A stretch of DNA of 64,000 nucleotides from Eubacteriales bacterium (GTDB lineage Bacteria; Bacillota; Clostridia; Peptostreptococcales; Acidaminobacteraceae): positions 44,678 through 108,677 of the forward strand of contig JAYVIR010000026.1 of assembly GCA_043770095.1 (NCBI GenBank), read 5' to 3'. Position 1 is the first letter of the stretch. The number at the start of each line of letters is the position of its first letter. Positions 5,347 through 37,150 of this stretch are shown one piece after another. A model generated the notes under the pieces. The model saw nothing but the letters and a program-made list of their open reading frames with translations. It did no database searches and was not told the DNA's origin. Both the position numbers and the translations under genes were made by a program.

Positions 5347-7191
5347 ATGCTCAAAAAAACAATTGCACTTTCAACAGCGCTCTTAATAATCGTCAGCGGA
5401 CTCTCGGTAAGCAACCAATCAAACTTTACCAGCTACGCAGAAAGCCTTAAAACTGTCACGACAAAACTGGAAAAAGTAAAATACTCAGGTGGAACAGCAA
5501 CGTTCACAAGCATCCGAGTGCCTCTAAACGATCCTAAAATTCAAATAGTGACCACAACTGCCGCAAAGAAAATTGGACAGGTAGACACTTTGTCAAACCT
5601 TGTGCTTCAAGAAAATGATGAGATGGGCAAGGCAATTGCTGGCATCAATGGCACTTTTTTTAACGCTTACACAGATTTCCAGCCTGCGGGCACGATCATC
5701 AAACAAGGACAAGTTGGGCATATTTCCAATACGGGTAGTGTCATCGGCTTTGGAACGGGTGGGCAGCTTAGTGTTGAACCTTTGGACATTAAGATAGAAG
5801 GCAGTTCGCAGGGACAGTGGGTGTGGCCTTATAATTGGTATGCATGGAATTTGAATCATTTCTACAATGACCCAAAAGCGGTTATGATTTTTGATAAACA
5901 ATATGTTGGTGTTAAACCTAAACACGATTTTGCCGCTATTTCAGTGGTGAAGGGTGTGGTCACTAGCATTCAAGTGGGCGCTTTTAACATCCCTTCAGAA
6001 GGGTTTTTAGTGCTGACAAAAGATGCTGATATTCTTAAGAAGTTAACGCTTAAATCGACTGCGGATTACCGTTTTGTTTATGGCGTCAAAACATATGACG
6101 CAAAGAAAACCATTACCCCATATGATGCCAGTCAGATTCAGTTTGCGGTTGGCGCGGGGCCAATATTGGTGAAAAACGGGCAAGTGGTTGCTGACCCAAT
6201 AAAGGAAGGGTTTACAGAGCTAAAAATTCTGACGAATAAAGGACAGCGCAGTTTTATTGGGGTGACACAGGACAAGCAGTTAATTTTTGCTTCAGTGCCA
6301 AGTGTGACGGTTAAGGAATTGGCAGAGATTGCAAAGCTTTTAAAATGCCAAGAAGCGATTAATTTGGACGGCGGCGCATCGTCAGGCACCTATGCAAATG
6401 GAAAATCGGTGGTCACACCTGGGCGCAAAATCAGCAATGCCTTGGTGGTAAAAGTATTAAATGAATTGCCAATTGGGATTAGCCTCAATGGAAAATCGGT
6501 ATTTTTGAGCTTGCCAGCAGTCTATAATCAGAAGGATGAGCAGGTTTATGTGCCTGAAAAAGAATGGCTGAATCGATTGGGATTTGCAAATAAAGCACAG
6601 ACCTTGAGCAGTGTGACGACCCTTAAAATCAAAGGGGTTGATTATGTCGCCCTTAAAGAACTCATAGACGATCTGATGGGGAAATATGATTATAATAAAG
6701 ACACGCGCAGTCTGGAAGTGGTCATAACCCTTGTATCGGATATTTTGAGAGAGGCAAGTTCGCTTGAAACTCAGGGGCAATTGCCACTCGCTGCGGCGCG
6801 TTATAAAGTGGCTCTTGCGAAAGATACCAATAATATTGTCGCCCTAAAGGCGCTCGCGAACCTATACCATTTGAAGTTGAATGAGCCATTAACAGCGGTG
6901 CCCTATTATCAAAAAATCATTCAATTGGAGCCGAAAAACGTCTCAGTAATATCAAGTTTGGGGTGGGTATTATATGCTCAAACTCAGTTAAACGATGCAA
7001 AAGTTCTTTTTGAAAAAATAGTTTCCTTGTCACCAGATTCGGCGGTGGGCTATTACGGCTTGGCGATGGTGCTTTCGCATAACCAAATTAACGACACCAG
7101 CGGTGCTAAAGCAAATTTTGAAGCCGTCTTAAAACGTTCGCCAACCAAAGAGCAGAAGGCAATTTGCACGACATATATTAATAGTCATTGA
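5347..7191 (+). CDS. Secreted phosphodiester-glycosidase-family protein with copper-amine-oxidase-like N-terminal (stalk) domain and C-terminal TPR repeats
   Basis: Signal peptide. The central region (GINGTFFNAY..., NLDGGASSG) resembles the DUF2233/NAGPA phosphodiester glycosidase family. NGKSVFLSLPAVYNQ...VDYVALKELIDDL is a Cu-amine-oxidase N-domain repeat. The C-terminus has TPR-like repeats. Confidence 0.55.
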   Translation: MLKKTIALSTALLIIVSGLSVSNQSNFTSYAESLKTVTTKLEKVKYSGGTATFTSIRVPLNDPKIQIVTTTAAKKIGQVDTLSNLVLQENDEMGKAIAGINGTFFNAYTDFQPAGTIIKQGQVGHISNTGSVIGFGTGGQLSVEPLDIKIEGSSQGQWVWPYNWYAWNLNHFYNDPKAVMIFDKQYVGVKPKHDFAAISVVKGVVTSIQVGAFNIPSEGFLVLTKDADILKKLTLKSTADYRFVYGVKTYDAKKTITPYDASQIQFAVGAGPILVKNGQVVADPIKEGFTELKILTNKGQRSFIGVTQDKQLIFASVPSVTVKELAEIAKLLKCQEAINLDGGASSGTYANGKSVVTPGRKISNALVVKVLNELPIGISLNGKSVFLSLPAVYNQKDEQVYVPEKEWLNRLGFANKAQTLSSVTTLKIKGVDYVALKELIDDLMGKYDYNKDTRSLEVVITLVSDILREASSLETQGQLPLAAARYKVALAKDTNNIVALKALANLYHLKLNEPLTAVPYYQKIIQLEPKNVSVISSLGWVLYAQTQLNDAKVLFEKIVSLSPDSAVGYYGLAMVLSHNQINDTSGAKANFEAVLKRSPTKEQKAICTTYINSH

Positions 7192-7221: not shown

Positions 7222-7272
7222 AAAACACCCTATAAGCCAGGCTTTGATAGTCTATGCTCATAGGGTGTTTTG
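7222..7272 (+). terminator. Terminator hairpin (aacaccctat ... atagggtgtt + T-run)
   Basis: 10-bp stem with a long loop, then tttgc. Downstream of the 5347 gene. Confidence 0.45.
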
Positions 7273-7432
7273 CATAAGCGATAGTTAATAATGAAGCTGT
7301 ATTATTTTTTTAATTTGACCTTCAAAACTTAAAATAATAAAATAGAAACCGTGCGTAAGCATAATTTGGTATAATTAAGGTAATGAACTTTTCTGGAATC
7401 ATTTACTGGCAATAATGCTAAGGGAGTTGTTT

Positions 7433-8323
7433 ATGAAAAAGTGCATTCGAAAAGGATTCATCTTGACTTTATCGCTCGTGTTGATTGCAAGTAGCATGAT
7501 GGGCAGCTTTGCAGCTGTGACAACAGATCAGTTGCCATTGTCATCGGCCTTTAAATACTTCGAAAAATTACCAAAGGATCAAGTGAGTCTCTACGTAAAA
7601 GACCTGACATCGGGTAAAAGCTACGGCCTCAATGAAAATTTTATTAACAAAGAAAAGGAAGCGGGCATGATGGGCGCATCTGTCATAAAGCTTCATTTGG
7701 CCTATTATGGCGTCAAAAGTATTGAAAAAGGCACCTATAAATGGGATCAAACCTACAAAGATCCTGTGAGTGGGCGAAAATTTACCATCAGAAATGAAAT
7801 GTCTAAAATGATTACGGTTTCGGACAATGGCTCGTTCAATACATTGCTTCGATTTTTCAAGCCTGAAGCTATTAATGCAGGCTTTGCAGATCTGTTAATG
7901 CCAAATACAAAAGTGCACGCGGAACTAGGTCCTGCAGGCGATGGTTGGTCTGCTGCGAATAACAGAAAGCGCTATGGCACGACAAAGGGCGGTCGGATTA
8001 ACGCTTACGAAACCGCTGTGATGCTTGAGGATATTTTTAAAAATAAAGAAAAGGCAGATATGAAAGTGCTTCACAATTTCATGCTTAAAGTCAGCAATAA
8101 AGATAGAATTCCATCCGCGGTGGGCAAGGCAACTATGGTGGCTCATAAGACGGGAACGATGTCGGATAAAGATGGTGTTTTTGACGATGTAGGTATTGTT
8201 TATGGAAAAAATGGCAATTATATTATCTGTGTACTCGTCCAAAAACAAAAGGCTAGCATCGATAAAGAGACTCGCAAAGCGCTTAAATTGGCATTTGATT
8301 ATATGGAAAAATCCATCCGATGA
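7433..8323 (+). CDS. Class A beta-lactamase-related secreted serine hydrolase
   Basis: Signal peptide. SxxK (GASVIK), SDN (VSDNGS) and KTG (HKTGT) motifs are in class-A order. The Omega-loop ExxLN is not canonical (AELGP). ATG 7433 follows RBS agggag. The ORF track begins at 7415. Confidence 0.65.
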   Translation: MKKCIRKGFILTLSLVLIASSMMGSFAAVTTDQLPLSSAFKYFEKLPKDQVSLYVKDLTSGKSYGLNENFINKEKEAGMMGASVIKLHLAYYGVKSIEKGTYKWDQTYKDPVSGRKFTIRNEMSKMITVSDNGSFNTLLRFFKPEAINAGFADLLMPNTKVHAELGPAGDGWSAANNRKRYGTTKGGRINAYETAVMLEDIFKNKEKADMKVLHNFMLKVSNKDRIPSAVGKATMVAHKTGTMSDKDGVFDDVGIVYGKNGNYIICVLVQKQKASIDKETRKALKLAFDYMEKSIR

Positions 8324-8373
8324 TTTACGCCGACTAACAGTGGTTTTGCGAGCTAATTTTGCTGCATATATGA

Positions 8374-9654
8374 ATGAAGGGAATGATAACGGTGAAACAG
8401 AAAACAATTATACATATTGCGCTCTGCTTATTGGTATTGATGAGTGCGATTGTGCTAAGTGACAGCGCTTTTGCGGCTGAAAACACTTCTAATTACGACA
8501 AGATTCCTTTAAAGGTTTTAACGAGAACGACTACGGGTACTGCAGTCTATTTAAACGAAACGTTTCAGCCTGCTCATGATGGGTTTGTTCTGTTTAAGGC
8601 TTCGGATCTCTTTAAAGAGGCTTTGGACAAACATCAAATCAATTTAAAATCATTTGTAAAAGGCAAGGGCAGTTTTTATGCATTTGATAAAGGCGTGTTC
8701 GCAAATGGAAAACCGCTGATACAATCGGATGGTGAACTTTACTGCATGGTGGCAAATGACTATCAAGGCAGTTTGGGTCAGTTAATTGTACATGATGCTA
8801 AGGGCGTCTTTGTGTATGAGTATTTGCAGCGCATTGGCATAGATGGACACTATTTAATCGAATTGGCAAAAGGGTTGCCTAAATTGAGTGGGTTGGCTTA
8901 TGAAGACAACTTGATTTGGGTGAGTCGACAAAGTCCATATCCTGTAAACAATGTACTCGATTTAGGAAGTCTCGATAAAAATGGCATTCGAAGCACAAAA
9001 GCAATGAATGCTCAAAAAGAGGTTATTGCTCCACTTAAAGCACTTTTTGAGAAAGCAAAATCTTCGGCTCAAATCAACCTGCTTGTGGTAAGCGCGCAAA
9101 GAAGCGTCGCTTTGCAACAAGTGTTATTCACCAATAAAAGCAATACTTTACGCAAGCAAGGGGTCAAAGACCCAGATTCAATCGCACAAAAGAGTGTGAA
9201 TCCACCAGGATTTAGCGAGCATCATACTGGATTTGCGGTGGATGTGCTCTCGACTACCATCACAACTACCCAGGGTTTTTATAATTCAAAGCCTGCCAAT
9301 TGGTTGGAAAAAAATGCGCATTTGTATGGGTTTGTGGTGCGTTATCCAGAAGGGAAGACACCTGTAACGGGCATTATTCATGAACCGTGGCATTTGAGAT
9401 ATGTCGGCAAAACGCTTGCATCTGTTCTGGTACAAGAAAAATTGACCTTAGATGAGTGGATGATTCAGTCGCAAAAAGGGAAAATCTATCAAGATCAAAA
9501 AGGCCAGTGGCACTATTTTTTAGTGTATCCTAAAAAGAATCCAGTCGCGATGTTTTTACAACCAGAGAAGTTTAAATCTGTTGTTAGATATATGATAAAC
9601 GCTGATTTAGAAGGTTTAGACTTTATCCTAAATGTGGAAGAAGGCGCAAAATGA
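8374..9654 (+). CDS. VanY-type D-alanyl-D-alanine carboxypeptidase (M15B) with extra N- and C-terminal domains
   Basis: Signal peptide. Zn ligand motifs SEHHTGFAVDV and HEPWHLRYVG are typical of the VanY/M15 family. Confidence 0.7.
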   Translation: MKGMITVKQKTIIHIALCLLVLMSAIVLSDSAFAAENTSNYDKIPLKVLTRTTTGTAVYLNETFQPAHDGFVLFKASDLFKEALDKHQINLKSFVKGKGSFYAFDKGVFANGKPLIQSDGELYCMVANDYQGSLGQLIVHDAKGVFVYEYLQRIGIDGHYLIELAKGLPKLSGLAYEDNLIWVSRQSPYPVNNVLDLGSLDKNGIRSTKAMNAQKEVIAPLKALFEKAKSSAQINLLVVSAQRSVALQQVLFTNKSNTLRKQGVKDPDSIAQKSVNPPGFSEHHTGFAVDVLSTTITTTQGFYNSKPANWLEKNAHLYGFVVRYPEGKTPVTGIIHEPWHLRYVGKTLASVLVQEKLTLDEWMIQSQKGKIYQDQKGQWHYFLVYPKKNPVAMFLQPEKFKSVVRYMINADLEGLDFILNVEEGAK

Positions 9655-12155
9655 GCATTATAATAAGAACTAAAAAAGTAGTGGCGTGGACGTTGCTCAT
9701 CGCTATGAGTATGGCGGTTGTGCCAAGTCAGGGGTTTGCAGAAACCACGCTCACATCTCCTTCAAGTATTACAATCGAAGATCAGCAGAAAAAAAGGGTA
9801 GAAGTATTGCCACTTCAAAATGCGGGACAATATATTTTGAAAGATGCCGATCAAAAACTCTACTGGATGGATGCAAATGAACAAGTTTTTAAAATTTGGG
9901 ATGAGCCCATACTAGGACTTCAAATTGTTCAAGGTCAAGTATATTGGCTAAATCAAAAGGATAAAAAACTGTATGAGTGGAATGGGCGTTTGGCATCTGC
10001 AAAGTTGCTTAAACAGTTGCCTGAGCAAACCATTCATTTCTTTGTAGGTGATAAAATAACCTATTCTACTGTAGATGGCATATATGCGATTGATGGTTCA
10101 AATCAACCACAGGTGATCTTTGCAGGAGAAGCGCATCAAATTCAAGTGTTTAATAAAACTATTTACTTTATAAACGGAGCGGGTGGCATTTTTGAAATGA
10201 AAGAGAATTTGCCGGCAAAACTGCTTGCAAGTGGCCCGTATACGCAGTACCAATTGGGATCAGACGCCATGTTTGCTTTTAATCAAGCCACTGGGAAATT
10301 GGACAAAATTTCACTGGCAGATGGGAAGACGACAACCATTTATCATAGTGGCATACGATTCTTTGACATCGACCAAGATCATATTTACTTCATATTAGAC
10401 AACAATACGGAAGCTTTAAACCTGATACAAAAAGATTTAAAAGGGTCATATACATTTGTTCAAATTGATAAATTAATGGACATCAATGTCTCACAAGGCC
10501 AAGTAACCTTACTGACTCAAAGCGGACATTTTATTGAGGGTAAAGCTGATTTAGGTGGGCTGCTTGTAAAGGAAAGTCTAAAAAGCAGAAAACTTCTTAT
10601 TTCTGGCGTATTTGAAGAAACGGTCAAAGAGCCTCCTGTAATAGTGCCGCCAGTCGCACCTATAACACCACCAGTCGTTACACCAGTAACGCCGCCAGTC
10701 GTTACACCGGTAACGCCGCCAGTCGTTACGCCAGTAGTGCCAACCAAACCAAGCGCGCTTCTTTGGAATTTTGGCGATAAATATACCGATATTGAAGGCG
10801 TTTTGACGTTCAGAGGTGGCAATTACAGACAAAATGCGGCTTACGGCAACGTGAAAACACCTATCACGGGGATTCAAAAAATGTGGCAGGCCAGTATTCC
10901 TTCAACAGGCTCTATGTGGGGCGGCGGAAGTGGTTGGACGGGTCAGCCGTTGCTAATTAAGTGGCCAAGAGACACGAAGAAATTCATGAACATTTCTCAA
11001 AACTATAGAAATGATGATTCTTTTGTAGAAGTCATTCAAGCATCGCTTAATGGAACGGTCAACTTTTTTGATTTAAAAACAGGCAAGCGGACAAGACCGG
11101 TGATTAAAATTGGCAACTCCATTAAAGGAACGCCTTCTTTAGACAGCACAGGGCTTCCAATCCTCTATGTAGGCGATGGCATCAAAGAAAGTGATCGCAT
11201 CGGCTTTAGACTCTTCAACTTAATCAATCAAAAGGAAATTCATTTTGAAAATGGATTCAATTCAAAAGCGCCTAGACGTTGGCCTGCCTTTGATGGTTCG
11301 GCCTTGTTTACGCCAGATGGTAAATGCCTGTTGGCGGGCGGAGAGAACGGGTTGCTGTATCAAATGAAATTGAACGCCGTGTTTAACGCAAAAAATGGTG
11401 CTTTAAGCATTGCGCCTAAAGTTACGACCGTAAGTTCTGCGTACAGCAAAGGGAAATATGTTGCTCAACCAAGACTTGGCATGGAAAATTCTGCGGCTGC
11501 TTATAAAGACTTGCTCTTTATCTCAGACAACAGCGGCTATATTAGATGTTATAATTCCAAAATGACTGAAGTGTGGCGGTATAAGAATTTAGATGACACG
11601 GATGCCAGTATTGGTATAGAAGTAGAAAATGGAAGACCAATGCTTTATAGTGGATGTGAAGTCGATCATCAAGGCAAAGAAGGTAATTCAAGAATTATCA
11701 AATTGGATGGACTGACAGGGAAAGTTGTTTGGTCTAGAACCTTTAAATGCTATTCACTCTTTGGAGAAAGCCCATCAAACGGTGGCATGGTTTCTTCACC
11801 AATTGTCGGCAAAGGCCAAATGTCGGATCGTATAGTTCTTACGCTGTGCAGAACGCCAAAGCTTACATCTGGGCTCATGATGGCACTTGATAAAAAAACA
11901 GGCAAGACGATTTGGCAATACCAAATGCCAACATATGCATGGCCTTCTCCTGTTGCGGTGTACGATGAACACGGTAAGGCGTATATTTTCCAAAATGATC
12001 GACTTGGGAACCTCAGAATTGTAGATGGCGCTAGTGGGAAACTTATTTCGGCTCAAAAGATAGACAGCTATCTTGAGGCATCACCAGTGGTATATAACAA
12101 TTTGATGGTCTTTACATCTCGTACAGGAAAAATGTATTGTTTTAAATTGATTTAA
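9651..12155 (+). CDS. Large secreted repeat protein: N-terminal propeller-like repeats, Pro-rich PPVVTPVT linker, C-terminal PQQ/BamB-like beta-propeller
   Basis: The start ATGA overlaps the VanY stop (translational coupling). Recurrent YW/YF/YEW repeat units (QKLYWMD, KKLYEWNG, TIYFINGAG). The linker is PPVIVPPVAPITPPVVTPVTPPVVTPVTPPVVTPVVP. The C-terminal third has PQQ-like repeat spacing (KVVWS..., KTIWQYQ...). Confidence 0.55.
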   Translation: MSIIIRTKKVVAWTLLIAMSMAVVPSQGFAETTLTSPSSITIEDQQKKRVEVLPLQNAGQYILKDADQKLYWMDANEQVFKIWDEPILGLQIVQGQVYWLNQKDKKLYEWNGRLASAKLLKQLPEQTIHFFVGDKITYSTVDGIYAIDGSNQPQVIFAGEAHQIQVFNKTIYFINGAGGIFEMKENLPAKLLASGPYTQYQLGSDAMFAFNQATGKLDKISLADGKTTTIYHSGIRFFDIDQDHIYFILDNNTEALNLIQKDLKGSYTFVQIDKLMDINVSQGQVTLLTQSGHFIEGKADLGGLLVKESLKSRKLLISGVFEETVKEPPVIVPPVAPITPPVVTPVTPPVVTPVTPPVVTPVVPTKPSALLWNFGDKYTDIEGVLTFRGGNYRQNAAYGNVKTPITGIQKMWQASIPSTGSMWGGGSGWTGQPLLIKWPRDTKKFMNISQNYRNDDSFVEVIQASLNGTVNFFDLKTGKRTRPVIKIGNSIKGTPSLDSTGLPILYVGDGIKESDRIGFRLFNLINQKEIHFENGFNSKAPRRWPAFDGSALFTPDGKCLLAGGENGLLYQMKLNAVFNAKNGALSIAPKVTTVSSAYSKGKYVAQPRLGMENSAAAYKDLLFISDNSGYIRCYNSKMTEVWRYKNLDDTDASIGIEVENGRPMLYSGCEVDHQGKEGNSRIIKLDGLTGKVVWSRTFKCYSLFGESPSNGGMVSSPIVGKGQMSDRIVLTLCRTPKLTSGLMMALDKKTGKTIWQYQMPTYAWPSPVAVYDEHGKAYIFQNDRLGNLRIVDGASGKLISAQKIDSYLEASPVVYNNLMVFTSRTGKMYCFKLI
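10671..10741 (+). repeat. Three tandem about 24-bp DNA repeats (ccagtcgttacaccagtaacgccg) encoding the PPVVTPVT linker
   Basis: Direct reading. Three near-identical tandem copies lie inside the 9651..12155 CDS. Confidence 0.8.
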
Positions 12156-12193
12156 CGTATGGGTTACGTTTACTTGATTCAACTGGAAAAAAG

Positions 12194-12221
12194 GTAACGT
12201 TAAAAAAGTAACGTTAAAAAA
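12194..12221. repeat. Tandem 14-bp direct repeat (gtaacgttaaaaaa)x2, each containing an AACGTT palindrome
   Basis: Direct reading of the intergenic region upstream of the M23/LysM peptidase gene. Confidence 0.6.
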
Positions 12222-12269
12222 GAGGACAATAATAAACAAAGTATGATATACTCTATTAAGTAATATTAC

Positions 12270-12286
12270 TGTAACATTACTGTAAT
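12270..12286 (+). promoter_or_regulatory. WalR (YycF)-type direct repeat TGTAAC-N5-TGTAAT upstream of the M23/LysM peptidase gene
   Basis: Exact fit to TGTWAH-N5-TGTWAH. It lies about 45 nt upstream of a TTGCAC-16-TAAAAAT promoter and 84 nt upstream of the start codon. It also contains the 6-1-6 palindrome CATTACtGTAATG. Confidence 0.45.
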
Positions 12287-12369
12287 GTTTCAAAGTGATT
12301 TCTTAATGAAGACATTCGAGCGTTTCCATTGCACAATGCTTCAAAGACACTAAAAATAGGAGAACAACT

Positions 12370-13731
12370 ATGTATTTTGGAGCTCAGCAGAAAATGAAAA
12401 CGCAGAAAGCGATCAAGTCATTTTTCCAAAAAGCAACAAGAGATCATAAATATATATCATCTTTGTCAGTCGCAACTCTTGTACTTGTTACATCGGGAAT
12501 AATCGTTTTTAGTAAAATACCAGGACTTGAAGTAGAACAAACGGTTGTCGGATTAGACCAGTCTCAGTGGGTATTAAGCCAAGAAAACATGCACGCTGTA
12601 CCAAGTGAGTCAATCATTGCAAATGTGAAGAATGATTCAGGACTTAAGCCGTTTAGCCTTGAAACTGCAATTGAAGATGTGGCAACCTATGCACAGGTGG
12701 CGCTTAATGGTTACACCATTAGCATAGATCACCGAGAAATTGGTTTTTTTAAAAGTGAAATGGACACTCAAAAGGTGCTTGAAAGTTTCAAAACGCCTTA
12801 TGTCAAACCAAGTGTGACGGATATTTACTTTAAAGAGCAAGTGGAGAGTAAGTTTTTAAGAAGACTGGCGATTAACTTCTCGGGGTACTCGGATCAAGCA
12901 AGTGCCATTAACTACTTAAAAAAAGGTTCAGAGGTAATAAAAACGCATAAAGTACTTGAAGGTGAAAGTTTCTGGGCAATTGCAGAGGCAAATCAAATCT
13001 CAGTCGATAAGTTGATCAGTGCTAACCCTAATTTGGTGCCAGAACGTATCAAAGCAGGAGATGTTCTCAATTTAGTCGCACCAAAATCATTTTTAACGGT
13101 TTGCACAGTGGAACAACTCAAATATACGGAGAACATTCCGTTTGATATTCGTTTTAAAGACGATTCGAAAATGTTTAAAGGTCAAACGAAAGTTGTTGTT
13201 GCAGGTGTTACAGGAACAAAAGCCATTGAAGTAAAATTGATTAGCGAAAATGGGAAATTGCTTAATAAGCAAATACTCAATGAGAAAGTTGTCGCTCAGG
13301 CGTCAACTCAATTTGTAAATAAAGGCATCAAAGCATTACCTTCTACAGCACCAACAGGTAAATTCGCAAAACCTTTCAGCCGTGGCGCATTTTCATCTCC
13401 ATTTGGAAGAAGATGGGGCAGAATGCATAAAGGTGTTGACTTCAACATGCCAACGGGTTCAAATATTTTTGCTGCCGATGGCGGTAAAATTGAAAAAATA
13501 AGCTTTGAGAAAGATGGATATGGACTTCATGTCATTGTCAACCATGGCAATGGTTATAAAACCGTCTATGCCCACACAAGCAAGATTCTTGTGAAGGTAG
13601 GCGACAAAGTGTCCAAAGGACAGCAAATTGCTTTAAGCGGCAGTACCGGCAGAAGCTATAGCCCGCATTTGCACTTTGAAGTTTATAAAAATGGGACGCC
13701 TGTTAACCCACTTGGCTATATCAGCAAATAA
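12370..13731 (+). CDS. M23-family peptidoglycan endopeptidase with LysM domain
   Basis: N-terminal TM anchor. LysM (GESFWAIAEANQISVDKLISANPNL). The M23 catalytic motifs HKGVDF and SPHLHFEV are at the C-terminus. Confidence 0.8.
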   Translation: MYFGAQQKMKTQKAIKSFFQKATRDHKYISSLSVATLVLVTSGIIVFSKIPGLEVEQTVVGLDQSQWVLSQENMHAVPSESIIANVKNDSGLKPFSLETAIEDVATYAQVALNGYTISIDHREIGFFKSEMDTQKVLESFKTPYVKPSVTDIYFKEQVESKFLRRLAINFSGYSDQASAINYLKKGSEVIKTHKVLEGESFWAIAEANQISVDKLISANPNLVPERIKAGDVLNLVAPKSFLTVCTVEQLKYTENIPFDIRFKDDSKMFKGQTKVVVAGVTGTKAIEVKLISENGKLLNKQILNEKVVAQASTQFVNKGIKALPSTAPTGKFAKPFSRGAFSSPFGRRWGRMHKGVDFNMPTGSNIFAADGGKIEKISFEKDGYGLHVIVNHGNGYKTVYAHTSKILVKVGDKVSKGQQIALSGSTGRSYSPHLHFEVYKNGTPVNPLGYISK

Positions 13732-13768: not shown

Positions 13769-13807
13769 AGACCTCTTACAACTGTTAAAAGTAAGAGGTC
13801 TTTTTTA
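13769..13807 (+). terminator. Strong Rho-independent terminator (agacctcttac ... gtaagaggtct + TTTTTT)
   Basis: Perfect 11-bp stem followed by a T-run. Confidence 0.8.
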
Positions 13808-13875: not shown

Positions 13876-14793
13876 TTAGTCATTAGAACCTGTGCTGTAA
13901 AATAACCGAAGCGCCTCTATCGCTGAAGCGGTCGCAGGGGTTAGCGGCATTTGCGAATGCTTGACGATATAAACGGACGTGGTCGGGATTTTCTCAGGTA
14001 TGGGGATGACCTTGAGGTTTTGGTCAGCCCATTTACTCAGCGCCATCTTAGGCACAAACCCTACCCCAATGCCAATGCTCGCCATTTCTAAGATTAGTTC
14101 CACGCTGCCCCCTTCAAACTCGGGCAGCCAAGGGACTTTTTTTTCTGCCAAAAATCGATCGAGCAGCCTGCGCGTGGTCGATTTTGGTTCTAAGGTGATG
14201 AGGGTGCAACGGCTGAGTTTTTTGAGCGTAACCTTCTCACGCTTAAGTCCATATGCTTCTAGCACAGCATCCGTTGCCACGAAGACATTCTCGGTTTCCG
14301 TTAGGGGATAGACGGTTAGGCGCTGAGTCTCGAGTGTTGCCTCGTAGTTTACCACGGCAAAATCAATCTCGCCCTTTTGAACAAGCTCAGAAGAAATGGG
14401 CGATGGGCGGTTGTTGATGGTAATGCGAATGAGTGGGTGTTTTTCATGGAAGCTTTTGATATAGGGCAGCAGTAAAAATCGGCTGATGGTGTCGCTCGCA
14501 CCGAGGCGTATACTGCCAGAGTGGAGCTGGTTCATGTCTCTGAGAGTCGCTGCGCCTTTGTCTAGCAGTCGGATGGCGGGTTCAACGTGCTCAAGCAGAA
14601 TTTCACCCTCTCTGGTGAGCTTGACCCGTCGTCCGTCTTTATAGAAAAGTTTGACTTCTAAAGCGTCTTCGAGTAGACGGATGGTTTGACTCACGGCAGA
14701 TTGGGTAACGAATAACTCAGCGGCTGCTTTTGTATAACTTAAATGAATGGCCGCGGCGTAGAATACTTTGTACCACTCATATTGCAAATTCAT
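13876..14793 (-). CDS. LysR-family transcriptional regulator, divergent from purL
   Basis: N-terminal HTH (YTKAAAELFVTQSAVSQTIRLLE) and a LysR substrate-binding domain. 305 aa. Confidence 0.85.
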   Translation of the reverse strand: MNLQYEWYKVFYAAAIHLSYTKAAAELFVTQSAVSQTIRLLEDALEVKLFYKDGRRVKLTREGEILLEHVEPAIRLLDKGAATLRDMNQLHSGSIRLGASDTISRFLLLPYIKSFHEKHPLIRITINNRPSPISSELVQKGEIDFAVVNYEATLETQRLTVYPLTETENVFVATDAVLEAYGLKREKVTLKKLSRCTLITLEPKSTTRRLLDRFLAEKKVPWLPEFEGGSVELILEMASIGIGVGFVPKMALSKWADQNLKVIPIPEKIPTTSVYIVKHSQMPLTPATASAIEALRLFYSTGSND

Positions 14794-14900: not shown

Positions 14901-17900
14901 ATGGTGAAAAGAATATTGGTGACAAAGCGTCCTGAGCTCGATGTAGAAGGGACTTCACTTTACAAGCAAATACGTGAATTTTTACAAATAGACAGCATTG
15001 AAAAAGTGACCGTTTATAACGGCTACGACGTAGAAGGATTAAATGACTTAGAAATTGATAAGGCAATCGAATGTGTCTTCTCAGAGCCAAATGCAGATTT
15101 TGTGTCAGAGCAAATTACACTTGAAGCAGGAGAGCAGGTTGTCTTTTTCAAACTCCTTCCGGGTCAATATGACCAAAGAGCGGATTCGGCAAAGCAGTGC
15201 ATCGCCATTCTTGGACTTGGTCAAAATGTTGGACTTCAGTGTTTTAGAGCGGTTGTGTTAAAAGGAAATCCTACGCCAGAAGCGTTAAACAGCATTAAAA
15301 AGTTCTTGATCAACCCAGTGGAAGCGCTCGAAATTCCTGCTCAGGCACCTCTTTCAACGGCGGTTATTTTGCCAGTTCCAAGTGACATCCATCGCTACGA
15401 CGGCTTCAATCAAATGGACGAAGCGGCGCTGGAAGCTTTCATCAAAGGGGAAGGCCTTGCAATGAACGCAGAAGACTTAAAAATGGTTCAAGCGTATTTC
15501 CAATCAGAAAAAAGAGAACCTTCAAATACAGAGATCAAAGTACTGGACACTTATTGGTCGGATCATTGCCGTCACACGACTTTCACAACCGAGATTACTG
15601 AGGTGACGTATGGTGAAACGGGTGAAACTTCTGCCTATAGCGCGCTTCTTGCAAAAGCAGAAAAAGAATACCATGACATGCGCCAGTTGGTTTACGGTGA
15701 GCGTGCGAAGACTAGACCAGTTACTTTAATGGATCTTGCCACCATCAACGCAAAGTATTTAAAGAAGCAAGGTAAACTCTCAGACGTGTTGGAATCTGAA
15801 GAAATCAATGCGGCGACCTTTGAAACTGAGGTTACTTTTGAAGACGGCAGCAAAGCGCCTTACTGGATCTTGTTCAAAAATGAAACGCACAACCATCCAA
15901 CGGAAATTGAGCCTTTCGGCGGTGCGGCGACGTGTCTTGGCGGTGCGATTAGAGACCCACTTTCAGGCAGAGCACTGGTTTACCAAGGGATGCGTATTAC
16001 AGGCGCAGCGGATCCGAGAGCTTCTTTGGAAGAAACTTTGGCTGGAAAATTGCCGCAGCGTGTCATTACGAGAGGCGCGGCAAAAGGCTTTAGCAGTTAC
16101 GGCAATCAGATCGGCCTTGCAACGGGCTTGGTTAGAGAATATTACCACGACGGTTTCCTCGCTAAGCGCATGGAAGTCGGCGCAGTGGTTGGCGCAGTTC
16201 CGAAAGATCAAGTGCGCAGAGAAAGTCCGGTTTCAGGCGATGTCATTCTTCTCATCGGCGGAAAAACAGGCATTGACGGCTGCGGCGGTGCAACAGGTTC
16301 ATCGAAAGAACATGATGAAGCGTCACTTGCTACTTGCGCATCAGAAGTGCAAAGAGGCAATGCGCCTGAAGAGCGAAAACTTCAAAGACTCTACAGCAGA
16401 GCAGACTTTGCGGCTCTTGTGAAAAAGTCCAACGACTTTGGTGCAGGTGGCGTATCGGTTGCTGTTGGAGAACTTGCAGACAGCTTGATCATCAATTTAG
16501 ACGCAGTCAGATCAAAATATGAAGGCCTTGATGGCACTCAGCTTGCCATTTCAGAGAGCCAAGAGAGAATGGCAGTCGTGGTGTCTCCAAAAGATGCGGC
16601 GGCGGTAATCGCTTTATCGGCTTCAGAAAACTTGGAAGCTTATCAAGTGGCAGAAGTGACGGACAGTGGCTATTTGACAATGACTTGGAAAGGCGACACC
16701 ATTCTTCATTTAAAGAGAGCCTTTGTGGAAACCAATGGTGCAAAGCGTGAGCAAAGCGTTGTGGTTAAAACCGAGACGCCAGATGTGGACGCTGCCCTTA
16801 AAAATACGTTAAAAGAGAAAAAATCCTTAAAAGCAGTGGTAGACAATTTGGCTCAGAGCCTTAACTTCTGTTCGCAAGAAGGTTTGGTTGAAATGTTCGA
16901 CAACAGCGTGGGTGCACTTTCAGTACACATGCCATTTGGCGGCAGAAGACAAAAGACGCCAACGCAGGCAATGGTCAGCAGAATTCCTGCCTATGAAGTA
17001 CACGGCAAAAATGTTACGACGGCAACGGTTATGGCAGCCGGATATGACCCAGAAGTTCTCAGCGCAGACCCATTCAGCGGCGGCGCAAAATGCACCGTAG
17101 AAGCCTTGGCAAAAGTGATTGCTGTCGGTGGCGAGCTTGGCAAGGTGAAATTCTCTATGCAAGAGTATTTTGAGAAACTCGCAGACGATCCTAAAAAATG
17201 GGGCAACCCTTACAAAGCTCTTCTTGGAAGCGCTTATGCCTTAAAAGGACTTGAACTATGTGCCATTGGTGGTAAAGATTCCATGTCAGGGACGTTCAAA
17301 GAAAAAACAGTGCCGCCCACTTTGATTGCGTTTGCGGCAACGGTAGCTGAATCGGAACATGTGGTTTCGCCAGAATTCAAGGCTGAAAATGAAGCTCTTT
17401 ATTTAATCGATGTCGACAAAGACGCTTTTGGCATTCCAAACTTTGAAAATTTGAAAACGGTGTATGCGCTCTACGGCAAACTCATCGCGGCAGATGTCAT
17501 CGGTTCGGCAATGGCGCTTGAACAAGGCGGCCTCCTTGGCGCACTCATCAAAATGAGCTTTGGCAATCAAATTGGTGTCCAAATGGCACCAGGCTTTGCT
17601 CTAATGACAAACGAATGGCTGCAGGCACGTTATGGTGCCCTTGTGTTTACCATCAAAACAGAAACATCGATTAGCCCTGAGGCACAAGCCTTGGTCAGTG
17701 AAACTTTAGGCTTATTAATAGATATGGGACTTGCAAACAAATTTGGTAAGACGATAGCGACTTGGAGCCTTGAGACTGGAAAAGAGTCCATTGCTTTAGG
17801 CGATGTAGAGAAAATATGGGAAGCACCGCTTTCTGAAATATTCCCAAGAGTCAAAGACGCTACAGGTGAAGCGCTCGTTAGCGGACTTGTTGGAACGTAT

Positions 17901-18713
17901 GATTTAAGAAAACTTTCGGTAAATGTTCTAACAGGCGCAAAGCCAAAAGTCTTCATTCCAGCTTTTCCAGGCACCAACTGCGAAATGGACACGATGAGAG
18001 CCTTCGAACTTGCGGGCGCCGAGGCACACGTTGAAGTCTTTAGAAACAAGACGGCTTCAGACGTTTCATACAGCATCGAAAGTTATATAAAAGCGGTTAG
18101 ATCTTCCCAAATGATCGCACTTCCAGGTGGTTTCAGCGCAGGCGACGAACCGGATGGTTCAGGCAAATTCATCTGCAGCGTTCTTAGAAATCCAGAACTT
18201 GCTGAGGAAGTCATGAAGCTTCTTAGAGAAAGAGACGGCCTAATGATCGGTATTTGCAACGGCTTCCAAGCACTTGTAAAACTTGGTTTGGTCACTTACG
18301 GCGAAATCCGAACGTTAGAAGACGATGCGCCTACGCTCACCTACAATACTTGTGGCAAGCACATCTCTAAAATTGTCAGCATCTCAAGCGTTAAAAACGA
18401 TTCTCCTTGGCTTAAAAATGCGGAAGTCGGTGCTGAGTATCAAGTGGCGATGTCTCACGGCGAAGGCAGATTCTTCTGTAATGAGACATGGTATGAGCAG
18501 TTAAAGGCGAACGGCCAACTCGCAACACACTATGCGCCGGGGAGTAACTTAAATGGCTCAATGTTCGACATTGAAGGCATTACAAGCCCTGACGGCAGAA
18601 TATTCGGTAAAATGGGCCATGCAGAGCGCATTGGTCATAATACCTACAAGAATATTCCAGGTCGCTATGATATGGGCATTTTTAAAGCTGGAGTTGCCTA
18701 TTTTAAACGATAG
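14901..18713 (+). CDS. purL: Phosphoribosylformylglycinamidine synthase, single-chain large form
   Basis: 1270 aa. The FGAM synthetase domain is followed by a C-terminal glutamine amidotransferase domain (GICNGFQAL). Confidence 0.95.
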   Translation: MVKRILVTKRPELDVEGTSLYKQIREFLQIDSIEKVTVYNGYDVEGLNDLEIDKAIECVFSEPNADFVSEQITLEAGEQVVFFKLLPGQYDQRADSAKQCIAILGLGQNVGLQCFRAVVLKGNPTPEALNSIKKFLINPVEALEIPAQAPLSTAVILPVPSDIHRYDGFNQMDEAALEAFIKGEGLAMNAEDLKMVQAYFQSEKREPSNTEIKVLDTYWSDHCRHTTFTTEITEVTYGETGETSAYSALLAKAEKEYHDMRQLVYGERAKTRPVTLMDLATINAKYLKKQGKLSDVLESEEINAATFETEVTFEDGSKAPYWILFKNETHNHPTEIEPFGGAATCLGGAIRDPLSGRALVYQGMRITGAADPRASLEETLAGKLPQRVITRGAAKGFSSYGNQIGLATGLVREYYHDGFLAKRMEVGAVVGAVPKDQVRRESPVSGDVILLIGGKTGIDGCGGATGSSKEHDEASLATCASEVQRGNAPEERKLQRLYSRADFAALVKKSNDFGAGGVSVAVGELADSLIINLDAVRSKYEGLDGTQLAISESQERMAVVVSPKDAAAVIALSASENLEAYQVAEVTDSGYLTMTWKGDTILHLKRAFVETNGAKREQSVVVKTETPDVDAALKNTLKEKKSLKAVVDNLAQSLNFCSQEGLVEMFDNSVGALSVHMPFGGRRQKTPTQAMVSRIPAYEVHGKNVTTATVMAAGYDPEVLSADPFSGGAKCTVEALAKVIAVGGELGKVKFSMQEYFEKLADDPKKWGNPYKALLGSAYALKGLELCAIGGKDSMSGTFKEKTVPPTLIAFAATVAESEHVVSPEFKAENEALYLIDVDKDAFGIPNFENLKTVYALYGKLIAADVIGSAMALEQGGLLGALIKMSFGNQIGVQMAPGFALMTNEWLQARYGALVFTIKTETSISPEAQALVSETLGLLIDMGLANKFGKTIATWSLETGKESIALGDVEKIWEAPLSEIFPRVKDATGEALVSGLVGTYDLRKLSVNVLTGAKPKVFIPAFPGTNCEMDTMRAFELAGAEAHVEVFRNKTASDVSYSIESYIKAVRSSQMIALPGGFSAGDEPDGSGKFICSVLRNPELAEEVMKLLRERDGLMIGICNGFQALVKLGLVTYGEIRTLEDDAPTLTYNTCGKHISKIVSISSVKNDSPWLKNAEVGAEYQVAMSHGEGRFFCNETWYEQLKANGQLATHYAPGSNLNGSMFDIEGITSPDGRIFGKMGHAERIGHNTYKNIPGRYDMGIFKAGVAYFKR

Positions 18714-35203: not shown

Positions 35204-37150
35204 TTATTGATTGACTGGCGGAGCATATTTTATTATTTTTGTAACTTCAGTCGTAATGCCAGAGCGATTGGTCGCTTGGATCAAAATGACATTATCGCCT
35301 GGAAGGAGCGTCAATGTTTTTGTAAAGTTGCCAGATGGTGTAATGGCAACAACTTCACCTTTGATTTTGAGAACGACAGCAGATGTATCTTCGCCACCAT
35401 AGAGGTTTCCGCTAATGGTCACTGCTGCGCCGGATGTGTTTGTTTGGATATCAGAGAATGTGATTGGAGGGGCACTTGGTGTGTAAGTGACTGTGAAATC
35501 AGTTTTTGTCACTTTACCATCAGGATTACTCACTTCAACCGTTATAATGTTTTTATCAGCAATAAGCGTCACTGGGTAGCTAACGGTACCGTCGGAATTA
35601 ACAAGTGCACTCTTTCCGTTGACCTTAACCGCTAAATATTGTGATTTGTAGAGAGCATCTGTCACTTTCAATTCTACCGAGTATGCTGCTTTTGTGCTTG
35701 TTACAGGGCTAGTAAAAGTAATTGCAGGTGCTACCGTTTGGTAAACAACTGTTTTAGTCACTGAGCTCATTTTGTTCTGGCTATTTACAACTTTAAAGGT
35801 AATCACGTTATCGCCTTTGATCAATTTATAAGGGATTGTGACTGCTTTGCCATTGGTCATTTTGTATTTTAGCTCATTCACGTAAAGGTAAAGCGTTGAA
35901 TCGACAGGATCAGTTACTTTCAAATCGATGTCAATAATTGCTTTGTTAGAAGTAGCAGGGATATTGATGATAGAAATGGTTGGCGTGCCTACTTCATAAA
36001 GAACGCGAATCAATTTTGTAGTGACGAGGCCAACTTGATTCTTAACTTCAATAAGAATATCGTTAGAACCTTCTTTTAATTGCAAAGTAGTAGAGTAATA
36101 ATCATTGAAGTAGCCTTTTGTAACAGCTGTCCCATTCACATTTACAATTGAAAGGGCACTGCCATTAGGATCTTTTGCATTAAATTTTACAAGCAATTTT
36201 GATTGATTGACTTTTTCAGGAATAGAATCGATCAGCGTAATCACTGGTGCGCCTGCTGTAAAGATAACTTGTCTTGTAATGGTTTCAATTTTAGAGTTTG
36301 GATACTGAAGGCTAATTTTGAAGGTATAAGTACCTGGACCGTCAGAAATTTTCCAATTGCCAGTATAGTTTGTGCCAGTGTATTCTATTGTTTTTTCATT
36401 GATCACGAGTTTTGTATTTGCAGGAAGTTTGATGTTAATTGGAACAATATTGCTAGAAACTTGTTCCGGCATTTTAACTTCTGCGCTATAATTAACATTT
36501 GCTTTGCTGAAGGTAGATTTGATTACCTTATAAACCATTGCAGATGCTTGTGCTCTAGTAATAGAAGCAGAAGGTTGCAAAGTGCCATTTGGGAAACCAG
36601 AAATTAAGTGGTTATTGACTGCTAAAGCCACTTCGTCTCTTAAATTAGGAGAGATATCGGCAATATCACTGAATTCGAGATCGTCAAAAGAAGTGGAACT
36701 TCCAATAGCATCTAAATTTAATGCCCTAACAAGTGCGACAGCAACATCTTCACGAGAGGCTTGGCCTTCAGGGTCAAAAGTTGGTTTTCCGTTAGGTGGA
36801 AAATAGCCTGTTAAGTAAGGTTTTGCTGCTTCTATGTAGCCATATGACCAACGGGAAGCGTCTACGTCTTTAAAACTTGGCGTTGAAGGTTTTGCTTCGT
36901 CTAATCCAAAAGTCTTAAATAAAACAACGGCAAATTCTTCTCTTGTGATCCCTTTCTCAGGAGCAAAATTACCATTGGTGTAGCCCGATAGGATTCCACT
37001 GTTTACAAGGACCTGAATGTACTCATTTGCCCAGTAGGTAGATTGAACATCTTTAAACTTTTTGTTTTCCGTAGCAAATGCCATGCTTGGAAGGCTGCTG
37101 ACAAAGAGTACGATGATCAGCAACAGGGTGGATAATTTTCTCGATTTCAT
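35204..37150 (-). CDS. S-layer homology (SLH) domain cell-surface protein with tandem Ig-like domains
   Basis: Signal peptide. Three SLH repeats (FKDVQSTYWANEYIQVL..., FKDVDASRWSYGYIEAA..., FDDLEFSDIADISPNLRDEVALAVN). Repeated about 90-aa beta-rich modules follow. Confidence 0.7.
   Translation of the reverse strand: MKSRKLSTLLLIIVLFVSSLPSMAFATENKKFKDVQSTYWANEYIQVLVNSGILSGYTNGNFAPEKGITREEFAVVLFKTFGLDEAKPSTPSFKDVDASRWSYGYIEAAKPYLTGYFPPNGKPTFDPEGQASREDVAVALVRALNLDAIGSSTSFDDLEFSDIADISPNLRDEVALAVNNHLISGFPNGTLQPSASITRAQASAMVYKVIKSTFSKANVNYSAEVKMPEQVSSNIVPINIKLPANTKLVINEKTIEYTGTNYTGNWKISDGPGTYTFKISLQYPNSKIETITRQVIFTAGAPVITLIDSIPEKVNQSKLLVKFNAKDPNGSALSIVNVNGTAVTKGYFNDYYSTTLQLKEGSNDILIEVKNQVGLVTTKLIRVLYEVGTPTISIINIPATSNKAIIDIDLKVTDPVDSTLYLYVNELKYKMTNGKAVTIPYKLIKGDNVITFKVVNSQNKMSSVTKTVVYQTVAPAITFTSPVTSTKAAYSVELKVTDALYKSQYLAVKVNGKSALVNSDGTVSYPVTLIADKNIITVEVSNPDGKVTKTDFTVTYTPSAPPITFSDIQTNTSGAAVTISGNLYGGEDTSAVVLKIKGEVVAITPSGNFTKTLTLLPGDNVILIQATNRSGITTEVTKIIKYAPPVNQ

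Follow-up and report, generated by a model that had tools for sequence, protein, structure and literature searches.

Positions 7296-12155 of the 64,000-nucleotide stretch of DNA considered here (the window, taken from contig JAYVIR010000026.1 of the Eubacteriales bacterium assembly GCA_043770095.1) probably form a single sigma-70-type operon for three secreted proteins that act on the stem peptides of peptidoglycan, one of them being a propeller protein that serves as a partner of the peptidases. The products are a serine hydrolase of the class A beta-lactamase fold, similar to the penicillin-binding protein (PBP) known as PBP-A (gene 1, 7433-8323, 296 residues), a VanY/M15B zinc carboxypeptidase (gene 2, 8392-9654, 420 residues, or 426 if the ATG at 8374 is used) and an 834-residue protein with two propellers (gene 3, 9651-12155). 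A further gene, which we place outside this unit, encodes a membrane-anchored LysM-G5-M23 metalloendopeptidase of 453 residues (gene 4, 12370-13731). According to the list of open reading frames, the four genes lie on one strand (plus) and span 7433-13731, and their translations carry N-terminal signal or anchor sequences in four cases out of four. The strongest argument for the operon as a functional unit, with the propeller working together with the peptidases, is that the propeller family is, as judged from genomic sequences, joined by fusion or tight adjacency to four peptidase families acting on stem peptides that end in D-Ala. None of the catalytic components is of a new kind, and as a whole the cluster resembles an ordinary locus for wall maturation; new are the occurrence of a PBP-A-like subclade beyond the cyanobacteria, its presence in one operon with zinc carboxypeptidases and, above all, the finding that members of a large propeller family, so far uncharacterised, are repeatedly fused to D-Ala-D-Ala peptidases or encoded beside them.

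Fusions and gene neighbourhoods of the propeller family

An exhaustive search of 1.84 billion representatives with the C-terminal propeller of gene 3 returned 335 representatives at E<=1e-30 and 1445 at E<=1e-3. In all of the best 150 of the 335, the propeller forms the C-terminal part and what precedes it varies, and in this same set it is found fused to Beta-lactamase2 (P0244, P0238 and P0219), to Peptidase_S11, that is, to DD-carboxypeptidases of the PBP5 type (P0245 and P0256; the sequence of the latter shows two hydrophobic segments between the S11 and propeller domains), and to PG_binding_1 (P0328). The statement of the preliminary description that the propeller protein has no known function needs to be amended in view of these fusions.

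Adjacent genes extend the set of partners. In the closest propeller relatives (L002 and L003, approx. 50% identical and sharing the N-terminal domain) a Peptidase_M14 gene lies 20 nt downstream of the propeller gene. Six loci of Clostridia metagenome-assembled genomes (MAGs; L011, L014, L035, L048, L062 and L066) have the order class-A-like, propeller, propeller, with an M14 gene adjoining in five and purL beside the block in four, and two others (L029 and L040) have purL followed by M14-propeller-propeller. Within the class-A-like subclade to which gene 1 belongs, the class-A-like gene is followed by VanY in L085 and by M14 and then VanY in L088, and it stands alone in L087, L123 and L124. 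An earlier description of the association of this propeller with a DD-carboxypeptidase or with VanY was not found in the searchable literature.

The same loci offer some further observations. In L002 and L003 a gene for a CobW/COG0523-type GTPase (L002 1519-2190; L003 7159-7827) is found upstream of the propeller-M14 pair, directly so in L003, as in L004, and approx. 5.8 kb away in L002; such a neighbour may hint at zinc-dependent regulation of the pair that includes the zinc carboxypeptidase. The gene for purL adjoins the class-A-like/propeller/peptidase block in the window (14901-18713) and in the distant Clostridia MAGs L011, L035, L048, L066, L029 and L040, which suggests that the block has long occupied this syntenic position. 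In L085 (9001-13600) a DUF4085 gene comes after the class-A-like/VanY pair, and next to it a gene for a PF00144 beta-lactamase fold fused to a GNAT acetyltransferase; there is an HTH_3 regulator upstream, and recombinase and insertion sequence (IS) genes are 7-9 kb away. A convergent conserved operon, found approx. 1-7 kb downstream of the class-A-like gene in L087, L088 and L123, encodes a short M15/VanY peptidase, an Acyl_transf_3 acyltransferase, a C39_2-like protein and a 150-residue protein, and looks like another wall-modification set. A second conserved context of the propeller, found in Ruminiclostridium and related MAGs (L012, L013, L015, L016, L019, L022, L023, L032 and L033), has the order propeller, propeller, signal peptidase I, acyl-ACP thioesterase, Germane (GerM-like), DUF218. 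Finally, 45 of the best 150 propeller representatives (P0223 and 44 others) share an N-terminal architecture without a Pfam match, in which the propeller is preceded, in this order, by a cytoplasmic tail that is long, charged and disordered, a single transmembrane helix, an Ig-like segment and a PT-rich linker.

The propeller protein

Pfam and the comparison with L089, a relative whose proteins are 85-91% identical to those of the window, delimit an N-terminal DUF5050-like propeller domain in the gene 3 product (residues approx. 40-335; 9768-10655, plus strand). It is followed by a Pro/Val/Thr-rich linker with PPVVTPVT repeats, recognized in the translation and by alignment (10656-10775, plus), and by the PQQ-like propeller of the C terminus, probably with eight blades, on which the definition of the conserved family is based and which was delineated from an AlphaFold2 model, Foldseek and the family census (10776-12152, plus). 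The N-terminal domain is 78% identical to that of L089 (L089 6001-7107) as compared with 95% for the C-terminal propeller, so that the N-terminal part evolves fast; the length of the linker also differs between close relatives, being shorter by 7 residues in P0001. The best relatives of the propeller in genome collections, from Clostridia and Actinomycetota MAGs, are only approx. 40% identical.

The AlphaFold2 model of the C-terminal 460 residues has a predicted local distance difference test (pLDDT) value of 92.5. Foldseek retrieves with it the designer eight-bladed protein Cake8, tetrathionate hydrolase and BamB, with E values from 1e-17 to 1e-14 at 15-16% identity, and the Pfam PQQ_2 score (38 bits) is above the cutoff of 27.6. 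Thus the protein shares with BamB and tetrathionate hydrolase (6l8a) the eight-bladed PQQ-like fold and a PQQ_2 score that passes the threshold; it differs from BamB in the low identity of the propeller and in its type-I signal peptide without a lipobox, and from BamB and other PQQ-like propellers in the distinct motifs TFRGG..R and GSGWTGQPL and in a genomic context of peptidoglycan peptidases. Two identities were considered and rejected: that of BamB, with 34.6 bits against the 423 of the equivalog model and a signal peptide that ends GFA-ET with no lipobox Cys, and that of a PQQ-dependent dehydrogenase, with 20 bits against 26.7 for Pfam PQQ and 23.7 against 480 for TIGR03075. Ten polar residues are near-invariant in the family, namely R388, R393, Q432, E460, R482, N566, Y570, S614, D648 and Y666, each being conserved at >=94% over 146 propeller sequences that are mutually less than 50% identical.

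The class-A-like serine enzyme

Pfam detects Beta-lactamase2 in the gene 1 product (E 8e-22), and the motifs SxxK (as SVIK), SDN and KTG are invariant across 23 homologs. The preliminary description had combined these motifs with a non-canonical Omega loop and had proposed a PBP-like enzyme as opposed to a true beta-lactamase. With the NCBIfam model bla_class_A the protein reaches 47.4 bits, below the cutoff of 200. A single-sequence search of the PDB gave no match at E<=0.001 and only matches of E approx. 0.02-0.05 to PER enzymes and PBP-A (the latter approx. 0.04). With a profile of the family, PBP-A of Thermosynechococcus elongatus (Tll2115; PDB 2j7v) comes top at 6e-44 and the best beta-lactamase follows at 2.5e-36, and with the AlphaFold2 model (pLDDT 90.7) Foldseek ranks 1-7 are PBP-A chains (TM score 0.78), the margins by which PBP-A outranks the beta-lactamases being small in both the profile and the Foldseek comparison. 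The next Foldseek ranks are taken by a class-A-like protein of Veillonella and then by LRA-5, which is described as an inactive 'precursor' (PMC12777564).

The residue equivalent to position 166 of class A enzymes depends on the method of alignment. It is Leu in the hidden Markov model (HMM) and ungapped alignments, like Leu158 of PBP-A; in a MAFFT alignment with TEM-1, WSAANN of gene 1 pairs with WEPELN and position 166 becomes Ser. In neither case is a Glu residue found there. A Glu that is conserved in the subclade sits one residue before the position-166 equivalent, and the Omega-type loop is approx. 10 residues longer than that of TEM-1 and approx. 16 residues longer than that of PBP-A. 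Overall, the gene 1 product looks like a PBP-like DD-peptidase and not a true beta-lactamase, as initially proposed, with both the motifs and the atypical loop confirmed.

The similarity to PBP-A, the best solved relative by profile and by fold, extends to secretion, to the SxxK/SxN/KTG triad common to both and to the hydrophobic residue in place of Glu166 in the HMM alignment. The two differ in that identity is approx. 18%, in the longer Omega-type loop of the window enzyme with its neighbouring conserved Glu, and in that gene 1 belongs to a Clostridia-like host and is in an operon with VanY and the propeller, PBP-A being described as cyanobacterial. PBP-A-like enzymes are regarded as connecting the PBPs with the beta-lactamases of class A. 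PBP-A has been experimentally shown to be a DD-carboxypeptidase/endopeptidase that prefers amidated stem peptides, and has been described as confined to cyanobacteria (PMC11189452); the subclade of gene 1 would now extend PBP-A-like enzymes beyond this phylum. For annotation, genes like gene 1 should not be labelled as beta-lactamases or resistance genes.

The VanY/M15B carboxypeptidase

The VanY domain of the gene 2 product is recognized by Pfam with E 2e-31 and 108.8 bits (gathering score, 25). The zinc and catalytic motifs SEHHTGFAVD (His-x6-Asp) and EPWH (Glu-x-x-His) are intact, and are conserved in 28 homologs. The catalytic domain is closest to enterococcal M15 and VanY proteins. The curated vanY/vanXY models are not reached (79-90 bits, 89.8 at best, with cutoffs of 250-500), nor is the NCBIfam model LD_carboxy_LdcB (74.4 bits, cutoff 275). 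An N-terminal domain of approx. 170 residues and a C-terminal extension of approx. 60 residues, both shared by a handful of relatives, are added to the catalytic domain; the N-terminal 205 residues gave no Pfam match even at E 10. With the VanY of van clusters the protein has in common the Pfam VanY domain, the zinc ligands and the catalytic Glu-x-x-His; it differs from it in being approx. 150 residues longer, in its scores below the vanY/vanXY cutoffs and in its surroundings, since neither vanHAX nor vanRS is found within 10 kb of the cluster.

Trimming of stem peptides by a DD- and then an LD-carboxypeptidase is carried out by DacA/PBP3 and then LdcB/DacB in Streptococcus pneumoniae and Bacillus subtilis. 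The resemblance lies in the combination of a serine DD-peptidase with an M15B zinc carboxypeptidase acting on stem peptides outside the membrane. In the window the serine enzyme has a class A fold instead of being an S11 enzyme, both are encoded in one operon with a third gene for the propeller, and the M15B enzyme stays below the LdcB cutoff and carries extra N- and C-terminal domains.

Operon boundaries and gene starts

For gene 1, starts at 7415 and 7433 are available, and the latter is favoured by the ribosome-binding site AAGGGAG (7420-7426) and by the gene caller. For gene 2, the GTG at 8392 is preceded by the ribosome-binding site GAAGGGA and was picked by two gene callers over the ATG at 8374; L089 has TTG where the window has this GTG, and the ATG at residue 4 is not kept there. 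The start at GTG 8392 is more likely than that at ATG 8374, and the first intergenic gap is therefore 68 nt rather than the 50 nt initially given. The overlap of genes 2 and 3 (ATGA, 9651-9654) was correctly described, and the 4-nt overlap is retained in L089, in which the order class-A-like, VanY, propeller, M23, LysR (minus strand), purL matches that of the window. The existence at 7433-13731 of a four-gene cluster with the product types initially proposed was also confirmed by the open reading frames and Pfam domains.

The promoter and leader of the operon occupy 7296-7432 (plus strand), as derived from a promoter scan and from conservation in L089. The scan identifies TTGACC (7315-7320) and TAAAAT (7338-7343) at a 17-nt spacing, and an extended -10 element TGgTATAAT (7367-7375), all on the plus strand. 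The block of 137 nt that precedes the start of gene 1 is approx. 95% conserved in L089, including TTGACC-17-TAAAAT and TGgTATAAT. Beyond it, the L089 sequence is unrelated to the window, and a gene for a methyl-accepting chemotaxis protein (MCP) is found there between NAGPA and the class-A-like gene. Because the conserved 137-nt block ends at this point, with unrelated sequence upstream in L089, the operon appears to begin at approx. 7296 and to exclude the gene directly upstream of the cluster (5347-7191), which encodes a secreted 614-residue protein that combines a NAGPA phosphodiester-glycosidase domain with TPR repeats at its C terminus. This upstream gene is closed by a hairpin with a T-run (CACCCTAT...ATAGGGTG TTTT, 7226-7272, plus), read by eye from the sequence. 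Neither the gap between genes 1 and 2 nor that separating the propeller gene from the M23 gene contains a terminator-like hairpin (folding z-scores, +0.7 and -1.6, respectively), and the cluster ends with an intrinsic terminator read from the sequence (GACCTCTTAC...GTAAGAGGTC TTTTTT, 13770-13806, plus).

Proposed mechanism and alternative explanations

The present analysis establishes the gene structure, the domain identities, the intactness of the catalytic motifs, the standing of PBP-A as closest relative of solved structure and the recurrence of fusions and adjacencies. From these results we infer the substrates, the order of action, the physical interaction and the accessory role of the propeller in the following scheme. 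Genes 1-3 would be co-transcribed and their products exported. The PBP-A-like enzyme would remove the terminal D-Ala (D-Ala5) of pentapeptides and/or cut 4-3 cross-links, and the M15B enzyme would either repeat this removal of D-Ala in a penicillin-insensitive manner or, LdcB-like, convert the tetrapeptide into the tripeptide. Through ATGA translational coupling, the propeller protein would be made in a fixed ratio with VanY; its C-terminal propeller would attach to the wall or to the anionic stem peptide, with the invariant Arg residues as candidate binding residues, and would position or control the enzymes, and the role of a spacer or surface-binding module would fall to the DUF5050-like propeller, which evolves fast, and to the Pro-rich linker. 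The LysM-G5-M23 endopeptidase would be a neighbouring autolysin, with its own promoter and operator-like array, outside the conserved module. Of the dedicated stem-peptide editing module suggested in the preliminary description, recurrent pairings and fusions thus sustain the part formed by the class-A-like enzyme, VanY and the propeller; the inclusion of the M23 endopeptidase is not sustained, as its gene has its own promoter and is seen with the others only in this lineage.

The most likely role of the propeller is that of a partner that assists or targets D-Ala-D-Ala peptidases. A broader and more tentative proposal is that the whole propeller family (at least 335 clusters at 50% identity, in Clostridia, Actinomycetota and others) might consist of dedicated partner domains of D-Ala-D-Ala carboxypeptidases, independently recruited by class-A-like, S11, M15B and M14 enzymes, in which an invariant Arg-rich site would bind the anionic stem peptide and gate or target trimming. 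Adaptor or regulator proteins of peptidoglycan enzymes are exemplified by NlpI, LpoA/LpoB and EnvC/NlpD; to our knowledge, none of this kind exists for DD-carboxypeptidases, and if the proposal is correct, the propeller family would be the first adaptor or regulator class for the carboxypeptidases of peptidoglycan. The propeller would share the logic of these adaptors, in which an extracytoplasmic protein without catalytic activity directs wall enzymes to their site or controls them; it is unrelated in fold to them (TPR and others in the known cases), and its interaction is deduced from genomics alone. Trimming of stem peptides sets the cross-linkability of the wall and, in turn, cell form, autolysis and drug tolerance, and the targeting and control of carboxypeptidases in Gram-positive bacteria are poorly understood. 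A family so far definable as 'BamB-like/PQQ-like, function unknown' would gain a concrete and testable hypothesis, that of a partner of D-Ala-D-Ala peptidases.

Several observations weigh against the proposed scheme. Approx. 60 of the 78 genome loci of the propeller family have no peptidase neighbour that tblastn can detect, and the associations are confined to few clades (roughly three adjacency clades and three fusion types) and therefore reflect few independent events. Homologs of the class-A-like enzyme that are <=36% identical, from JGI metagenomes, have no VanY, M14 or propeller neighbours, and the fused or adjacent class-A-like domains of other clades are only 21-24% identical to the window enzyme. 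The nearest VanY homologs that share the N-terminal domain are stand-alone genes beside his genes, and the coupling of VanY to the propeller therefore appears to be specific to the lineage of the window. Finally, the Omega-type loop, approx. 16 residues longer than in PBP-A, and the conserved Glu next to position 166 leave room for beta-lactam hydrolysis by gene 1, and the many invariant polar residues of the propeller would also fit a catalytic function, the top natural structural match, tetrathionate hydrolase, being an enzyme.

The last point leads to the possibility that the propeller is itself an enzyme, such as a hydrolase or lyase that has a wall polymer or the stem peptide as its substrate and works beside the carboxypeptidases, and not a binding or regulatory partner. 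The conservation of some ten polar residues across 146 highly diverged sequences, the cofactor-less nature of tetrathionate hydrolase as a propeller enzyme and the many family members without a peptidase neighbour are in favour of it. We consider it unlikely, given that identity to any enzyme is just 15-16%, that the cutoffs of the PQQ dehydrogenase families are missed and that repeated fusion to catalytic peptidase and PG-binding domains is typical of an accessory or targeting domain. It is very unlikely that genes 1 and 2 are an antibiotic-resistance pair, in which a beta-lactamase and a VanY that lowers D-Ala-D-Ala would confer tolerance to beta-lactams or glycopeptides, as the preliminary description had contemplated for vancomycin or beta-lactams, and a link of the cluster to such tolerance is not supported. 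The class A fold with all three serine-enzyme motifs, the proximity of the VanY catalytic domain to enterococcal proteins and, in L085, the location of the pair beside the PF00144 beta-lactamase-GNAT gene with recombinase and IS genes not far away would suit such a pair. On the other hand, the gene 1 product stays at 47 bits where bla_class_A requires 200 and has no Glu aligned with position 166, its closest relatives are PBP-A and LRA-5, the latter described as an inactive 'precursor' (PMC12777564), every vanY/vanXY subfamily score is far under its cutoff, and within 10 kb there are no vanHAX, vanRS or mobile elements, in a stable chromosomal context by the pur operon.

Systems that combine NAGPA, propellers and secreted VanY have been proposed as possible conflict systems (PMC12419801), and the enzymes of the window could accordingly be secreted to attack the walls of competitors, as in the NAGPA/beta-propeller/VanY systems of spore-forming Bacillota. 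Besides that published combination, the NAGPA-TPR gene directly upstream of the operon, the fast divergence of the N-terminal propeller domain (78% versus 95% identity) and the variable composition of the partners agree with this idea. Its probability is nevertheless slight: the locus has no toxin-delivery domain, immunity gene or polymorphic cassette, NAGPA is set apart by the terminator-like hairpin (by eye) here and by an unrelated gene in L089, and the fusions to housekeeping-type, membrane-anchored S11 DD-carboxypeptidases point to maturation of the cell's own wall. The lowest probability is assigned to a chance adjacency of four unrelated envelope genes without a common pathway. Most homologs of each gene do sit in other contexts, and the M23 gene is linked only in this lineage, as a chance assembly would predict; conservation of the ATGA overlap between the window and L089, the recurrence of the same family pairings in unrelated contexts and domain fusions that are hard to attribute to chance all argue for a functional connection.

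The M23 gene and the WalR-like box

The gene 4 product contains LysM, G5 and M23 domains; the M23 score is 117.4 bits against 28.7, the zinc motifs HKGVD (HxxxD) and HLH (HxH) are present, and the G5 domain, found by Pfam, had previously been overlooked. The gene is linked to the operon only in the lineage of the window (window and L089). Its own promoter is marked by the extended -10 element TGaTATACT (12244-12252, plus), found in the promoter scan and conserved in L089, where it immediately follows the stop codon of the propeller gene. It is followed by an operator-like array, GTAAT-ATTAC-T-GTAAC-ATTAC-T-GTAAT (12260-12286, plus), in which two 11-nt direct repeats are combined with interlocking palindromes, and which can be read equally well as several palindromes and as a hairpin predicted in the RNA.

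The segment TGTAAC-ATTAC-TGTAAT (12270-12286) fits the WalR consensus TGTWAH-N5-TGTWAH, and the L089 box differs from it only at both degenerate sixth positions. The WalR box that had been placed in front of the M23 gene is thus present, and conserved in this one relative; control by WalR is not upheld, for the single match in 64 kb compares with 0.53 expected, at least one match being found in 42% of shuffles (chance level), and the box begins 18 nt downstream of the conserved -10 element. No WalRK pair was seen in the scanned parts of the window. WalR of B. subtilis activates yocH, cwlO and lytE and represses iseA and pdaC. As in WalR-controlled autolysin genes, a wall hydrolase gene of the LysM/M23 type is preceded by TGTWAH-N5-TGTWAH; the difference is that in the window the box lies past the -10, in a repressor-type position, occurs at chance level and is also a palindrome array. 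The array at 12260-12286 is possibly the site of a response-regulator repressor or of a dimeric helix-turn-helix repressor, or else a leader hairpin.

With respect to L089, the window has an extra block of approx. 87 nt after the propeller stop codon (12156-12243), which holds a 14-nt tandem repeat (AAAAAAGTAACGTT, 12187-12221), and 31 nt are inserted in L089 directly behind the repeat array (window position 12303). The promoter and array that lie between these insertions or deletions are conserved.

Genomic surroundings

Downstream of the cluster, a LysR-type regulator (13876-14793, minus strand) is divergent from a single-chain purL, with which the pur operon begins (14901-18713). An Rfam scan of the whole 64 kb at gathering thresholds gave no matches, and so no tRNA and no riboswitch or leader RNA before any gene, including a purine riboswitch ahead of the pur operon. 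The G+C content of the window is 38-48%, and elsewhere it has genes for MCPs, a sigma-54 activator, a sodium-pumping decarboxylase and a surface protein that combines SLH, glucodextranase-B and cadherin-like domains (35204-37150, minus strand). Taken with the single-chain PurL ahead of the pur operon, these features suggest a Clostridia-like, anaerobic member of the Bacillota. The SLH protein indicates that the host has an S-layer or an envelope with proteins anchored to a secondary cell wall polymer.

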